Assembly (NCBI GenBank): GCA_964348135.1
Contig: CAYGBL010000007.1
Coordinates: 9,511 to 73,510, forward strand
Origin: an uncultured Actinomycetota bacterium
GTDB taxonomy: Bacteria; Actinomycetota; Aquicultoria; JACQXZ01; CAYGBL01
Reading direction: 5' to 3'
Length of the DNA stretch: 64,000 bases
Position numbers and translations under genes: made by a program. Positions 18,640 to 56,954 of this stretch are shown piece after piece (position 1 is the stretch's first letter; the number at the start of each line of letters is the position of its first letter). The notes under the pieces were generated by a model. The model worked only from the letters and a program-made list of their open reading frames with translations, had not been told where the DNA came from and did not search any database.

Positions 18640-18736
18640 AGAAAAATCCTATGGTATCATTAAGCATTGAGCTTAGAGCACAGAGCTTAGAAAAATATTT
18701 ATATCCTCGCTCATGGTTCTCTGCTCTCCGCTTGCT

Positions 18737-19021
18737 TTAAACTATTTTCGGTATTACAAAAAATCCGTCTTCTTCCTTAGGTGCGTTGGAGAGCGCCTCT
18801 TTTTGCGAAAGGCTGCCCTTCGCCTCATCCTTTCGAAGAACATTCCGGATAGGAAGCACATGGGAGGTCGGTTTTACCTTCTTTGTATCCAACTGGCTTA
18901 TCTTTCCGGCATGATCCAGAATGTTTCCAAGCTGCTTGGTAAATAACTCTTTTTCCTGTTCTGAGATAAAAAGGCGCGCCAGCATCGCAACATGTTCCAC
19001 GTCTTTTTTAGTTATAGACAT
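18737..19021 (-). CDS. gatC: Glu-tRNA(Gln) amidotransferase subunit C
   Basis: 94 aa. It sits upstream of gatA in the order gatC, gatA, repeats, gatB. Confidence 0.85.
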   Translation of the reverse strand: MSITKKDVEHVAMLARLFISEQEKELFTKQLGNILDHAGKISQLDTKKVKPTSHVLPIRNVLRKDEAKGSLSQKEALSNAPKEEDGFFVIPKIV

Positions 19022-19111
19022 TCTAAAAAACCCCTTCAGTTCAGAGCTTCGAGCAACGAGCTTTAAGCTTTTTATGTTTTTACCTTCAGTTCATGGCTCG
19101 CTGCTGGTCGC

Positions 19112-21121
19112 TTATTTTTCTACTAACTTCTTAAACTCTTCCTCGCTTAGTATCTTTATTCCTAAAGCTTTAGCTTTTTCATACTTGCTTCCTGGCTCTT
19201 CTCCCACTACCAAAAAGTTGGTTTTTGAGCTAACGCTGGAACTTACTCTTCCACCCTGTGCTTCAATCATCTCTTTGGCCTCTTCCCTGGTAAAGCTGAC
19301 CAGCGTTCCTGTTAGCACAAACGTCGTGCCAGCCAGTTTTTGGGAAACTCTTACCTTTGCGGCTTCCTCCATTTTTACTCCAGCTTTCCGCAGTTTGTCA
19401 AGCACCTTGAGATTTCTCCGCTGTTTAAAAAACAACACAACACTTTCAGCAATCTTAGGACCAACCTCATTAATCGCTACTAGATCATCAAAAGAAGCAG
19501 ATTTTAGCCGCTCGATAGAGGAGAAATGTTTGGCTAAAACGCCAGCCATATGAGAACCTACGTGGCGTATGCCCAAACCGTAAAGTAGCTTTGCCAGCGG
19601 CCGCCCTTTGCTGGCATTAATAGCCTCCAACAGATTCTCAGCAGCTTTATCAGCAAAATGAGGGAGCTGAAGAAGCTGCTCTTTTTTCAAATAGTACAGA
19701 TCGGAAACATCAGTGACCCATTTGTAAGATATCAATTCATCAACAATTGCTTCCCCGAGACCATCAATATCCAGTGCGCCCCGGCTAGCATAATGAAGCA
19801 AGTGCTCTCTTAGTTGTGCTGGACATGCTATACCTGTGCAACGGGTAACTGCTTCGCCTTCTGGCCGATAGACATCGCTTCCACAAACCGGGCATTTTGC
19901 AGGCATTTTAAACTTCTTTTCCTTACCGGTACGCTTGCCTGGAATAACCGAAACCACCTCCGGGATTACATCACCTGCTCTCTGGATAAGCACAGTATCC
20001 CCAATTCGCACATCTTTCCTTTTAATCTCATCTTCGTTATGAAGAGTTGCCCTGCTCACCGTTGTTCCTCCCACCTGCACCGGGGTTAGATGAGCAACCG
20101 GCGTAAGGGCTCCTGTTCTTCCCACCTGGACTACGATATTTTCTATTTTTGTAGTAGCCTGCTTGGCTGCGAATTTGTAAGCGACTGCCCAGCGAGGACT
20201 CTTTGAGGTCTGCCCCAACTGCTCCTGCTGGGTTAATGAATTAACCTTTACCACCACACCATCAATCTCATAGGATAACCTTTCCCTCTTTTCTGCCCAC
20301 TCTTCACAAAACTTAAATACTTCCTCTGTGCTTCTGGCTAATCTTATATGAGGATTTATCTTAAACCCAGCTTCCTTTAAGAACTCCAAAGCTTCGTTTT
20401 GAGTCTCGAAAGCAACTCCGCTTACAAAACCGATTGCATAGGAAAAAATATCGAGAGCCCGCGACGCAGTCACTTGAGGATCTAATTGACGCAGAGAACC
20501 AGCAGCTGCATTACGTGGATTAGCAAAAAGAGAAAGCCCTTCTTTTTCTCTTTGTTTATTTAATTCTTTAAATTTATCAGCAGGAAGAAAGACCTCACCT
20601 CTTACTTCCATTTCCTCGGGTGGATTCTTCAGGCGGAGTCTCAGAGGTATACTATGTAAAGTCTTAAGATTGGCAGTAATATCCTCACCAGTTTCTCCAT
20701 CTCCACGGGTTGCTCCCCTGGCATAAATTCCGCCTCGATATGTAAGCGCGACCGCAGATCCATCGATTTTCAATTCGCAGACATACTCTATTTTCTGCTG
20801 CGGTAGAGCTTTTTCGATACGGCTGAAAAAAGCTTCAAGCTCATCAAAATCAAATGCGTCAGCCAGAGAGAGCATTTTGGTAAGATGACGTACCGGTTGA
20901 AAACCTTCAGCGGGAGGAGCACCGATTCTTTGGGTAGGGGAATCTGGAGTAATTAATTGAGGATACTGTTCTTCCAGTTTAATCAGTTTCCGCAATAGTT
21001 GGTCAAATTCAGCATCCGATATTTCAGGAGCATCGAGTACATAATAGAGATAATTATGATGATTTATAGTCTGTCTAAGTTCCTCAATTCTCTTTTTTGC
21101 CTTCTCCAGATTATCTTTGAT
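19112..21121 (-). CDS. ligA: NAD-dependent DNA ligase LigA (N-terminus extended beyond the ORF-track start)
   Basis: The ORF track starts at TTG 20995, but the frame stays open upstream to a TGA at 21130..21128. That upstream stretch encodes a canonical LigA N-terminus ([42 protein letters not shown]). No ATG, GTG or TTG is available there. The candidate starts are ATC at 21121 (6 nt after AGAGGTGA) or CTG at 21109. Confidence 0.8.
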
Positions 21122-21574
21122 AAGATGTCACCTCTCTTAATAGAGCTAATTTCCATGCTTCAAAACAATTTTAATTCCTCTCCTCAACACAAGTCAATTT
21201 GTCCTTTCTTGATTATCTTCCAACGTAGTAGCATTATTATACTGAGACTAGCAATGGGATTAAAACCTGCAAAACTAAAATTCAAGATGCACAATACAAA
21301 AATTTCAACCAGCAATTCAAAAAGAGCAAGATTGCTTCTTACGCTACTGGCGTAGTCGCAATGATAGATCAAGCAATGACACCATTTTGTATCAAAGCGA
21401 TAAAATGTTTGACGAAGTGAGTTGTTTTTTGATTTTGATTTGCAATTCCAGTTTTAACTTTAACTTTCATACTCCTCTTTGGAGATAGGCTATAATAAGG
21501 TTTTTCTGGGCAAACAGGTCCCCACCTTACACTTTATGTTTATTGAGAAGCATAAATTTTAAATACTATGTGCG

Positions 21575-55142: not shown

Positions 55143-55180
55143 AGGAGCTGGTATCGAGTTCCTGCCAGCTCCTTCTTTGC
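55143..55180 (-). terminator. intrinsic terminator after the NIL-ferredoxin gene
   Basis: On the minus strand the hairpin AAGGAGCUGG-caggaacucgauac-CCAGCUCCUU is followed by UUAUUUGU. Confidence 0.6.
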
Positions 55181-55204
55181 AGTATATAAACTGTAACCTT
55201 TCCT

Positions 55205-55612
55205 CTAGAACAAGACGCCGATTACTCTTACAGGACAAGCATTTACACATAACTCGCAGAGAATACATTCGTCCTTATCAAAGCGTAACTTCCAGTTCTC
55301 GATATTCATAGTAAGAGCATCAGTCGGGCACACAGCTGTACAGGCGCCGCAGTCAATACATCCTTTCTCGTCAAGTTTTATGTCTCTAGCTGCCTCCTGA
55401 ACATCTACATTCTGGCTACGCAGGTAATCCAGCCCTTTTTTTATCTTTTCCTGCGGACCATCGAGTTCCAATACCATATGGCCGGTTTCTTCTTCACGAA
55501 TCTCAGCGCGTAGAATATTTGTAATCAAATCATAATCCTTCACCAGATGATAGGTTATAGGTTGAGCAACCTGCTCAGGTGGAAAGGTTAAGACTATTTT
55601 TTTTCTGGCCAT
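55205..55612 (-). CDS. NIL-domain 2x[4Fe-4S] ferredoxin (partner of DUF39 in sulfide-dependent homocysteine synthesis)
   Basis: 135 aa. The N-terminus is a NIL domain. The C-terminus reads CIDCGACTAVCP...CILCELCVNACP. Confidence 0.7.
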   Translation of the reverse strand: MARKKIVLTFPPEQVAQPITYHLVKDYDLITNILRAEIREEETGHMVLELDGPQEKIKKGLDYLRSQNVDVQEAARDIKLDEKGCIDCGACTAVCPTDALTMNIENWKLRFDKDECILCELCVNACPVRVIGVLF

Positions 55613-56779
55613 TTATATCTCCTCCTCTGTTTTGATCTCCAAAGGCTTAAAGACCTGTTCTTGTGAAAGATAAGCGATGGGCTCTTGAAGCAGAAACTTA
55701 CCTTGGCCAATCCACTCTTTGAGAATCCCTGCAATCTCTTTTGCTCTGGCATAACTGGACAGCGGAGCCGTCGGTACTTCTTTGCCGTTGATAGTAATCT
55801 TCCCACTCCGAAGTTCCTGATAGCTGACCTTCCCCAAAGCAGGTTTTGCTCGTTGTGGGATACTATAATCAATTATCGTAGTGTGTATATCTTCATCGCC
55901 TACACTTACATGTTCCGCTATCTCCTCATTGAGGATTGGAATGGGGATTCCTACACCTACATATATTGTAGTTCCGTAGCGATAGAACGTTGCCCCACGT
56001 ATAAAACCTGCGCTCATTTGTTTCAAGTCCCCAATCAAAGCTAGAGTTCCTGCGGGGGCAACTGGTATACCTTTCTCATTTCTTCGCTGCTTGGGATTAT
56101 GTTGGGTTCCTTCCCAGGCAACATACCCCACCGTTCCTCCTAAGAATATCCGCGTTCCTATACCGATAGTCTTATAAAAGGGGTCTTTTAAGAGTGGATT
56201 AAGTTGCGAAGCACTGCAGTACGTAGCATTCCCCAGTCTGGGCAAGAGAGTTCCCATATATGTATGGATAGTACGGTTAGAAGTATTTACAGCAACTGCG
56301 TAATTCTGATAGCAATTGCGGGGATTAAAAAGGTACGCCTGATTCACACTATCTTTAGTCACAAATGTTTCAATCTCTTTACGGGGATAACAATCCGTAC
56401 CGTAAGCAGTGGATTTCAATTTTACCGGTTTACCATTAATCAGATCCTCAATTACATGACCTCCACCGTAGTCAAAACCTCTAGTTTCTGACAGCTCAGT
56501 TGCTCCAATGTATACATCTACTGCCGCTAATCCTGCATAGCTCAGTACATCATTCAGCCATACTTTAGTCATTTTAATAGGCGGATCAGCGTGTCCGAAG
56601 TTAATAAAAGCCCCTGATGAACACATGGGACCAAAAGTTGCAGCAGTTACCACATCCACCTCTTGAGCAACTTTCTTTACACCTTTTTCTTTTGCTAATT
56701 TTACAATTTCTTCAGCAGTAACTACTACTACTTGACCTTTCTTAATTTTTTCATTTATCTCTTCATAAGTTTTAGCCAT
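55613..56779 (-). CDS. DUF39/COG1900 homocysteine biosynthesis protein
   Basis: 388 aa. The N-terminus (TYEEINEKIKKGQVVVVTAEE) and the overall size match the COG1900 family. It is translationally coupled to the NIL-ferredoxin gene. Confidence 0.65.
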   Translation of the reverse strand: MAKTYEEINEKIKKGQVVVVTAEEIVKLAKEKGVKKVAQEVDVVTAATFGPMCSSGAFINFGHADPPIKMTKVWLNDVLSYAGLAAVDVYIGATELSETRGFDYGGGHVIEDLINGKPVKLKSTAYGTDCYPRKEIETFVTKDSVNQAYLFNPRNCYQNYAVAVNTSNRTIHTYMGTLLPRLGNATYCSASQLNPLLKDPFYKTIGIGTRIFLGGTVGYVAWEGTQHNPKQRRNEKGIPVAPAGTLALIGDLKQMSAGFIRGATFYRYGTTIYVGVGIPIPILNEEIAEHVSVGDEDIHTTIIDYSIPQRAKPALGKVSYQELRSGKITINGKEVPTAPLSSYARAKEIAGILKEWIGQGKFLLQEPIAYLSQEQVFKPLEIKTEEEI

Positions 56780-56954
56780 CTTTACACCTCCTATATTAGT
56801 TCACGGTTCACGGTTAACGGCTCACAACCGTCAGTTGACAGTTCTCAGTTCTGCATGAATATAATTCCTCCGACCCCACTATATAATATGTGTCGCATTG
56901 TTTCTCCAATATTAGTTCACGGTTCACAACCGTCAGTTGACAGTCTTCGAGACC

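Follow-up and report, generated by a model that had tools for sequence, protein, structure and literature searches.

Why should so many gaps between the genes of a metabolic operon be filled by an inverted repeat that is itself built of short tandem units, and why should these units change from one gap to the next? The question is raised by a stretch of 64,000 nt of DNA (positions 9,511 to 73,510 of contig CAYGBL010000007.1, assembly GCA_964348135.1; hereafter, the window), which carries the Wood–Ljungdahl (W–L) cluster of an uncultured bacterium and, at many of its intercistronic junctions, elements in which tandem heptanucleotides fold back on near-complementary ones. These elements are, in all likelihood, heptanucleotide (sometimes octanucleotide) arrays in inverted pairs that resemble the short tandemly repeated repetitive (STRR) DNA of cyanobacteria and are of a kind already known. 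What is new here is the presence of STRR-like fold-backs in an Aquicultoria-like W–L bacterium and in several phyla, their quantitative anatomy, and their turnover at orthologous junctions. The account as a whole, which adds to STRR-like fold-back arrays their tolerance by operons and an effect on mRNA stability (a mechanism and a benefit that we infer), seems on balance probable.

Heptanucleotide Arrays in Non-Coding DNA

Nearly all the genes of the window are carried by the minus strand, on which the elements are read here, 5′ to 3′, as the sense strand. An earlier note on this DNA had listed 13 stretches with such elements, and the sequences that it quoted are present at the coordinates quoted in all 13. 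Periodicity was scored by counting the positions at which at least 17 of 21 bases equal the base 7 nt downstream (lag 7). In the window, 61 such positions are in non-coding DNA versus 3 in coding DNA, while the remaining lags from 2 to 13 give 0–8 positions each and lag 14 gives 36. Inside the non-coding segments, 52 lag-7 positions were observed, whereas 100 dinucleotide shuffles averaged 0.13 and never exceeded 7; with a relaxed threshold, all 20 arrays with a period of 7 or 8 nt fall in the non-coding 18% of the window. Tandem Repeats Finder (TRF) independently finds period-7 arrays of 2.4–8.7 copies. The arrays are real, and their periodicity, far above that of shuffles and of other lags, is far beyond chance.

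The architecture, described earlier as invariant under a heptamer that differs from locus to locus, does recur: tandem units of 7–8 nt, an A/T-rich loop, and near-complementary units, with a unit sequence proper to each locus, although the GGATTC type has a period of 8 rather than 7 according to TRF. The presence of elements at almost every junction of the cluster was, in contrast, too strong a claim: about 9 of the roughly 13 cluster spacers of at least 40 nt carry them, whereas the promoter-like spacers at 49083–49172 and 54675–55204 and several others do not. Nor are the elements confined to positions 18666–56945, as had been supposed, since a nested hairpin of around 220 nt lies at 11277–11513; beyond the W–L cluster, elements are found both in the gatCAB–ligA region and in this leu-like operon.

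The fold of each element was expressed as a z score relative to 200 dinucleotide shuffles, given below for the sense/antisense strands; the coding control, 70 windows of 90 nt, has a mean z of −0.10 (SD 0.93, minimum −2.5). The elements are as follows:

11277..11513, minus strand: nested fold-back between the aconitase small-subunit-like and Iso_dh (isopropylmalate/isocitrate-dehydrogenase-like) genes; outer units AATGACT / ATTAGTC, inner units AAAATCA / TTTTGAT; z −3.1/−3.4.
16713..16750, minus strand: one-armed direct array directly 5′ of gatB; AACTGNN units, including TAACTGAGAACTGA, without a complementary arm; z +0.7/−1.6.
18670..18732, minus strand: gatA|gatC hairpin of GAGC type, weak; GAGCNNA / CTNNGCT units; z −0.9/−1.4.
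19046..19111, minus strand: gatC|ligA hairpin of degenerate GAGC type, weak; z −1.4/−0.9.
26345..26383, minus strand: one-armed array of GCTCAAG units, abutting the UPF0182 stop codon in a 366-nt spacer.
32967..33053, minus strand: fdhA|CBS hairpin; outer units GTTCGCA / ACTGCGA, inner units GGCAGTT / ACTGTCA; z −4.9/−5.9.
33509..33587, minus strand: CBS|nuoF hairpin of GAGC type; five GAGCRNA units / four CTCTAAG units; z −2.3/−3.4.
35928..36011, minus strand: hairpin between nuoE and the gene at 36015–37028; 8-nt units AAGGATTC / TTGAATCC; z −4.5/−1.8, with the sense strand far more stable (−37.5 vs. −24.8 kcal/mol for the antisense strand).
41849..41880, minus strand: GltD|acsC one-armed remnant; GGTGAAC / AGTCAAC units, no dyad; z −0.2/−1.1.
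43284..43338, minus strand: acsB|acsC hairpin; CGTTCAC / GGTGAAC units; one of the two hairpins with a purine-richer 3′ arm; z −4.3/−3.7.
47508..47602, minus strand: acsD|cooS hairpin of GGATTC type, 8-nt units; z of the spacer −1.3/−4.4, strong on the antisense strand only.
48605..48669, minus strand: fur|acsD hairpin, AT-rich, weak; TTAGGAA / TAACGAA-TTACTAA units; z −1.9/−0.8.
50826..50910, minus strand: RACo|cooC hairpin of GAGC type, with a 5′ arm that begins within the RACo open reading frame (ORF); z −3.6/−5.3.
52828..52927, minus strand: fhs|RACo hairpin; nine TTAGGAA-type units in the 5′ arm, about five TAATAAC / GAATAAC units in the 3′ arm; 8.7 copies by TRF; z −3.5/−5.2.
56793..56945, minus strand: composite one-armed array in two direct copies, non-hairpin; AACTGNN units and then ACCGTGA units, situated between the T-box terminator and the HcyBio (DUF39) start codon; z −0.4 and −1.0.

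Folding and Anatomy of the Elements

The elements lie between co-directional genes, and the fold predicted for them, within a polycistronic mRNA, is a long hairpin with imperfect pairing. Such a hairpin had been attributed to every element listed, which is true of only some of them. Six junctions, with z scores of −3.4 to −5.9, are beyond the shuffles, and the coding windows never reach −3. At gatA|gatC, gatC|ligA, and fur|acsD, the architecture is visible by eye but the fold is weak (z −0.8 to −1.9), and four loci, namely GltD|acsC (41860–41905), gatB 5′ (16713–16750), and the two DUF39 5′ copies (56783–56945), have no dyad and a z of about 0; they are one-armed direct arrays or remnants. The sense fold is as stable as the antisense fold, or more so, at 8 of 10 junctions.

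The anatomy of the hairpins was studied in a set of 26 from the window and four relatives (see below, “Turnover at Orthologous Junctions”). Stem positions are paired, counting G·U, in 78% of cases, and the spacing of the mismatches peaks at 7 nt (67 observed vs. 33 expected, z 7.2) and again at 14 nt (z 5.5). The arms consist of units that are systematically not fully complementary; they are not a perfect palindrome that has decayed at random. On the sense strand of a 20-hairpin subset, purine·purine mismatches outnumber pyrimidine·pyrimidine mismatches by 111 to 27, whereas the purine fraction of the arms, 0.55, leads to an expected ratio of only around 1.5:1. The purine-richer arm is the 5′ one in 24 of the 26 hairpins, which are not independent of one another, some sharing a type or a junction. 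G·U pairs (44) are not clearly commoner than A·C mispairs (30), and there is thus nothing decisive to show that selection acts on the sense RNA rather than on the DNA or the antisense strand.

The position of the hairpins is precise. At 24 junctions, the base of the hairpin lies a median of 3 nt past the upstream stop codon, and its end lies a median of 24.5 nt ahead of the next start codon; the Shine–Dalgarno (SD)-like tail 3′ of the hairpin, such as GGGGAGG, AAGGAG, or GGGGG, is left unpaired. The spacers with hairpins are short and co-directional, at 78–116 nt, except for one of 288 nt, whereas the one-armed arrays mostly occupy leader regions and long spacers (366–769 nt), with a few short remnants at operon junctions. 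On the gene strand, the sites that most resemble promoters (11 of 12 matches) are present only in element-free spacers, at 49159, 55072, and 57372. A terminator-like U-tail is absent from all the elements, none of which has the GC-rich stem with a U-tract within 0–2 nt of an intrinsic terminator, and the terminator scan flags none of them, the only strong match nearby being the T-box terminator at 56963–56989. The sigma-70 and terminator scans, which gave total counts no different from those of shuffles, were used qualitatively only. We do not think that the elements are intrinsic terminators.

The final five codons of RACo, GAG CAT AGA GCA TAG (50896–50910, minus strand), are repeat units, and the element provides the C-terminus and the stop codon of a product of 643 aa, versus 642 aa in each of the two closest relatives (L081 and L082). 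In the HcyBio 5′ region (56860–56945, minus strand), around 35–60 nt, comprising the array, AATAT(T/A)GGAG, and ATG, are directly duplicated, which looks like the duplication of a translation-initiation region; a possible ORF of 17 codons (MRHILYSGVGGIIFMQN) follows the upstream copy.

Turnover at Orthologous Junctions

The elements were originally thought to be specific to this genome. However, the same architecture exists in four relatives (L081, L082, L084, and L085) and in genomes from other phyla, L046 and L052 among them, and the relatives do carry elements with different heptamers at the same junctions, some of which are empty. L081 and L082, with AcsB identities to the window of 90% and 88%, have the same synteny and architecture with permuted unit types and one empty junction each. 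L084 (78%) and L085 (76%) have heptamer hairpins with other unit types again, and the junctions of L086 (73%) are compact, at 12–59 nt, with essentially no elements.

Thus, fur|acsD has a TTAGGAA-type element in the window versus a GAGC-type element in L081 and L082, RACo|cooC has a GAGC-type element in the window versus a TTAGGAA-type element in L081, and acsB|acsC has a different unit type in each of the three. The empty junctions are acsD|cooS in L082 (a 52-nt spacer) and that between acsC and the next gene in L081 (a 28-nt spacer). The turnover of the elements is rapid, with large differences between arrays at 88–90% AcsB identity, and the elements are dispensable. Exact tandem unit classes are nevertheless common to the window and its two closest relatives only (AAGCTCT and AATTAGG in L081, AGAGAGC in L082), when around 0.06 would be expected by chance from the class counts and the roughly 1,170 possible unit classes. 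The unit vocabulary outlasts the position of any array, which implies some copying or re-seeding among sites.

A still closer comparison is offered by a 15.6-kb contig, L083 (GCA_012975005.1, JABAOC010026378.1), which encodes a GatB 100% identical to that of the window and matches window positions 14811–26738 at 99.2% identity; beyond runs of N, it differs by a handful of substitutions and small indels, two of these few differences being in the gatC|ligA element. A 4-nt indel upstream of ligA (window 21034) is among the differences from this contig, where ligA is called as two separate genes. The presence of the same elements in this independent contig, together with that of the same architecture in the independent assemblies of the relatives, rules out an assembly artefact. 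CRISPR arrays and coding repeats were also rejected, given the absence of unique spacers and the location of the arrays outside ORFs.

Fold-Back and One-Armed Arrays in Other Phyla

In 1.2 Mb of DNA around acsB from 80 other genomes of many phyla, there are 29 lag-7 arrays versus 0–11 per lag for lags 5–10. At acsB|acsC, an Armatimonadetes metagenome-assembled genome (MAG), L046, has a heptamer hairpin of CGTTCAA / GTTGAAC units (−54.8 kcal/mol), a Pirellulales MAG (Planctomycetota), L052, has an AAAATCA / TTTTGAT hairpin around a second palindrome, and Verrucomicrobia MAGs also have arrays; no arrays were found in the Actinomycetota MAGs of 61–67% GC in this 80-genome set. STRR-like repeats are therefore not a cyanobacterial peculiarity but exist in deep-branching Actinomycetota-like anaerobes, Planctomycetota, Armatimonadetes, and Verrucomicrobia.

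When metagenomes were scanned for CTCTAAGCTCTAAGCTC, i.e., (TAAGCTC)n, at least 119 stretches were found in assemblies with GC fractions of 0.30–0.66. Most of these arrays are one-armed and a few are fold-backs (L089, L093, L099, L147, and L160). The mostly one-armed arrays have no orientation bias relative to the flanking genes, and the hairpin versions, at four or five, are too few for an independent test of polarity.

The loop of a heptamer hairpin may enclose an unrelated second palindrome, as in L052 (12185–12325, GCCCCCACG...CGTGGGGGC) and in the window (11277–11513), which suggests either insertion into loops or outward growth.

Relationship to Known Repeats

The STRR sequences of cyanobacteria are said to have been reported by Mazel et al. 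in 1990, and Elhai et al. reportedly found, in 2008, small dispersed repeats within Nostoc heptamer hairpins.

The idea that the device might be undescribed does not survive a comparison with the literature, since hairpins of 7-bp STRRs are known between the hupS and hupL cistrons (PMC2670836) and an excess of intergenic heptanucleotides has been documented (PMC4679880, PMC4692102). The hupS–hupL hairpins of filamentous cyanobacteria consist of STRRs, “usually made up of 7 bp repeats”, of a function that is not known, the suggestions being transcript stability, translational coupling, and pausing (PMC2670836); in Nostoc, heptamer arrays also occupy the spacers of the hyp operon (PMC2408588). 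As in the cyanobacterial STRRs, tandem 7-bp units are spread here over many intergenic or intercistronic sites, the heptamer varies by locus, and inverted arrays are predicted to form hairpins between genes; the roles proposed are the same and equally unproven. The NNCAGTT-type units found here also resemble the Nostoc array ttgtcagttgtcag. On the other hand, the STRR host is a heterocystous cyanobacterium whereas the host here is a non-photosynthetic W–L-pathway bacterium, some of the present arrays are made of 8-nt units, and the periodic purine·purine mismatches and 5′-purine polarity were not found in the accessible STRR literature.

The canonical units STRR1 (CCCCAGT), STRR2 (TTGGTCA), and STRR3 (CAACAGT) have no exact tandem copies in the window, only near matches with up to two mismatches such as GAACAGTCAACAGT. 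The elements are called STRR-like, rather than STRRs in the strict sense, because these units are absent as exact tandems and because the host is not a cyanobacterium. Otherwise, they have at least three 7-nt units in tandem, except for the period-8 GGATTC type, they are dispersed over non-coding loci and excluded from coding DNA within these 64 kb of the genome, and, like hupS–hupL, they have inverted 7-bp arrays that would form a hairpin between co-directional genes, the co-transcription of which is assumed.

Heptanucleotides are the commonest long simple repeats in prokaryotes, and slippage was proposed as their origin by Mrazek in 2007, as related in PMC4679880 and PMC4692102. As portrayed in these two papers, Mrazek's repeats share with ours a preference for 7 nt, a sporadic phylogenetic spread, a location largely outside coding DNA, and a proposed origin by slippage; they are direct tandem arrays, and the definition given there does not include a paired fold-back at operon junctions. 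In 2015, MacGregor described TAACTGA repeats in marine Beggiatoaceae, some Cyanobacteria, and Bacteroidetes, where they are intergenic heptamers just upstream of start codons in distant phyla, and proposed them as sites of translational regulation that would be bound by S1, Csp, or CsrA (PMC4679880). The one-armed arrays of the window 5′ of gatB and HcyBio, which hold TAACTGAGAACTGA and related AACTGNN units, recall these repeats. However, nearly all the BOGUAY arrays are direct (169 sets, versus a single indirect one), and they use one heptamer genome-wide (PMC4679880), whereas here there are many types, mostly in inverted pairs. The GGGAATC and GGGGA(C/T)T repeats that Rehm et al. studied in Xanthomonas and Nostoc in 2015 are transcribed heptamers of variable unit number that are enriched, as here, between co-oriented ORFs near stops and starts (PMC4692102). 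The GGATTC / GAATCC units of the window are similar to the reverse complement of GGGAATC. The repeats of Rehm et al. are nevertheless G-rich, favour four units, and form G-quadruplexes (PMC4692102), whereas the present elements lack G-tracts and pair as hairpins. Two tandem GGGAATC units have no match in the window, even with two mismatches.

REP stem-loops after stop codons can reportedly block 3′ exonucleases, attenuate transcription, and affect translation termination, in work attributed to Newbury (1987), Espeli (2001), and Liang (2015). Like the elements here, the REP/BIME sequences of enterobacteria and the REPINs of Pseudomonas (PMC3116915) are extragenic imperfect palindromes within operons and between genes that are co-directional or convergent, and REP/BIME sequences are the best functional analogy that can be offered. 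REPs have, however, a genome-wide consensus of 20–40 nt along with RAYT transposases, while the present elements have no common consensus and are made of tandem sub-repeats: in alignments, copies of the same type are conserved in their repeat units only. A search of the whole window with Rfam 15 at gathering thresholds gave no match.

Proposed Origin and Behaviour of the Arrays

How might such elements arise and persist? The explanation that we favour is that each arm grows and is homogenised separately by replication slippage, which would account for the mismatches that recur every 7 nt. A limited, lineage-specific vocabulary of units might then be copied or re-seeded among intergenic sites, with the result that orthologous junctions would have different unit types or none. 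Within operons, arrays would persist mainly as fold-backs, the insert collapsing into an imperfect hairpin; with this hairpin around 3 nt past the stop codon and ending before the next ribosome-binding site (RBS), the stop codon and the RBS would stay adjacent and the RBS unpaired. One-armed arrays, in turn, would accumulate where spacing is of no consequence. As for benefit, a hairpin at the 3′ end of a cistron might, by analogy with REP/BIME and STRR sequences, hold up 3′ exonucleases and confer segmental mRNA stability, and the preservation of translational coupling would be the other part of the benefit that we deem most likely.

Several observations weigh against this explanation. Slippage predicts polymorphism, yet the unit number is the same in the window and in the 99.2%-identical contig L083 at the three elements covered (gatB 5′, gatA|gatC, and gatC|ligA), and the arrays are therefore not hypervariable on this time scale. 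The rise of a complementary arm and the movement of unit types between junctions are not accounted for, and the 5′-purine polarity and the purine·purine excess are only loosely explained. Co-transcription and folding in vivo rest on assumption. Since all the genes here are co-oriented, transcription is confounded with replication, and the effects of the two are not separable. To some extent, the filling of the gap between stop codon and RBS is trivial, since a compact ancestral junction has nowhere else for an insertion to land.

Should the arrays have an effect on mRNA, they would give long operons, that of the W–L pathway included, a cheap and fast-evolving means of tuning how much each cistron yields relative to the others, in a lineage that, being uncultured, has no genetics. 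Even if they are mostly neutral, they provide a natural experiment on the insertions that operons tolerate, which are fold-backs inside operons and one-armed arrays mainly in long spacers and leaders. Repeats at gene boundaries also matter to the assembly and annotation of MAGs, as shown by the one that alters the last codons of RACo.

Alternative Explanations

The proposal made at the outset was that the elements are dedicated post-transcriptional regulators, i.e., processing or stability sites, pauses, or partial terminators selected to set the stoichiometry of the W–L subunits. The occupation of most cluster spacers of at least 40 nt, the constant architecture with its precise placement between stop codon and RBS, the consistent polarity relative to gene direction, and the stability of the sense folds at 8 of 10 junctions are all as expected of such regulators, as is the presence of an element of some type at most orthologous junctions of four relatives despite the replacement of its sequence. 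However, the elements are not specific to the W–L pathway, being present in the gatCAB–ligA and leu-like operons, and their unit types are permuted at orthologous junctions, of which acsD|cooS in L082 and acsC|next in L081 are empty while those of L086 are compact throughout. Stabilities spread from z scores of about −1 to −6 and include decayed copies, no element has a U-tail, the G·U to A·C ratio (44 vs. 30) is not clearly skewed, and no Rfam family is represented. This proposal is unlikely.

Another possibility is that non-autonomous mobile elements, similar to REPs, REPINs, or MITEs, insert into hairpin-prone intergenic sites and are moved in trans by a transposase encoded elsewhere. Unit types do recur within the genome and occupy different orthologous junctions in close relatives; the 21-nt sequence TTTCTCTAAGCTCTAAGCTCC is common to two copies in the window, and its last 19 nt (TCTCTAAGCTCTAAGCTCC) are also in one L081 copy; and nested elements exist (window 11277–11513 and L052). 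The loops and flanks of same-type copies are, however, poorly conserved, the likeness being confined to the units, and the GAGC-type copies, tried as one mobile family, proved to have conserved arms with poorly conserved loops and flanks. Inspection by eye, and by eye only, revealed no terminal inverted repeats with target-site duplications, although empty orthologous junctions do exist. Pfam scans found no transposase, RAYT, or reverse transcriptase among 39 proteins of the window (leaving out gatB, gatA, gatC, ligA, the 23697–24038 ORF, and the open stretches of the long spacers), and no RAYT among the families of the orthologous W–L genes in L081 and L082. The very large diversity of units across relatives, the one-armed occurrence of the same heptamer in either orientation in unrelated organisms, and the 7-nt periodicity of the mismatches, which indicates homogenisation in situ, also argue against mobility, which is distinctly unlikely.

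A broader form of selection might be imagined in which the fold-back arrays are an “operon punctuation” across phyla: sequences would come and go while selection preserved the architecture, a self-renewing hairpin whose 7-nt pattern of tandem purine·purine mismatches and fixed 5′-purine polarity would be read by a conserved factor, whether the ribosome, an RNase, or a protein that binds RNA. This factor would set the mRNA stability of individual cistrons or re-initiation. We consider this to be quite improbable.

Finally, the arrays might be bound, as RNA or DNA, by a protein that recognises their sequence or shape, for example, a CsrA-, S1-, or Csp-type RNA binder of heptamers rich in GGA or purines, or, as in BIMEs, a nucleoid protein. 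This might be suggested by the many purine-rich, SD- or GGA-like 5′ arms (TTAGGAA, AAGGATTC, GAGCAGA), by the regular 5-bp helices broken every 7 nt by tandem purine·purine mismatches, and by MacGregor's S1, Csp, or CsrA proposal for the TAACTGA repeats (PMC4679880), but this is very improbable, as the units are too diverse for a single binder, CGTTCAC, AAAATCA, and GTCACAA lack GGA, and the elements are not linked to a gene for any candidate protein.

The Host, Its Genes, and Neighbouring Features

STRR-like fold-back arrays thus being preferred, it remains to describe their setting. The closest named relatives of GatB are from Actinomycetota MAGs, Ca. Oleimmundimicrobium (class Ca. Aquicultoria), and Ca. 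Aquicultor, and a UPF0182 gene is present in the window. The host is an uncultured W–L-pathway bacterium with deep-branching, Aquicultoria-like Actinomycetota as its nearest named relatives. Its AcsB has a best match of 69% among the GTDB representatives searched, and look-ups of the exact AcsB and RACo sequences gave no hit. In the window and its syntenic relatives, Pfam bears out the gene labels fhs, RACo, cooC, folD, fur, acsD, cooS, acsB, and acsC and, further, those of a GltD-like protein, MTHFR, fdhA-like, CBS, nuoF/nuoE-like, and HcyBio/DUF39 genes. The label URO-D has to be withdrawn from the gene at 36015–37028 (minus strand), a 337-aa ORF without a Pfam match even at an E value of 0.01.

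Two more dispersed families of palindromes, GTCATTGCGAGCGCAGCGAAGCAATC-like and CCTCTCCCTTGAGGGAGAGGGTCAGGGTGAGGGTGAG-like, fill spacers at 12039–12118, 16769–16825, 26085–26200, 37980, and 14896 (minus strand) and are also found at operon junctions, for example, between the genes of the large and small aconitase subunits; around five degenerate tandem copies of the CCTCTCCCTTGAGGGAGAGGGTCAGGGTGAGGGTGAG-like family lie in 26018–26383. The 472-nt gatA|gatB spacer holds, at 16813–17003, a tandem repeat with periods of 24, 46, and 70 nt and units like GTCATTGCAAnnnTATTTGTTTT, which adjoins the one-armed heptamer array.

Upstream of the HcyBio (DUF39) and NIL-ferredoxin homocysteine-biosynthesis genes lies a T-box leader (RF00230, 56974–57330, minus strand), which scores 90 bits versus a gathering threshold of 93 (E value 4e-20); its terminator stem is at 56963–56989, and a promoter-like TTGACA-18-TATATT is at 57372–57343.

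The flanks of the window (1–11000 and 57500–64000), unlike the region from 11 to 57 kb, have around 20 spacers without heptamer arrays, a contrast for which expression level, operon structure, and recent acquisition are candidate causes, and carry genes for msrA/msrB, hydrolases, GNAT, CAAX proteases, a multihaem-like protein, and rubrerythrin. Among the AcsB homologues examined, five of around 1260 aa (P0041, P0064, P0066, P0080, and P0085) contain, within the acetyl-CoA synthase subunit, intein and homing-endonuclease domains (PF14890 and PF14528).

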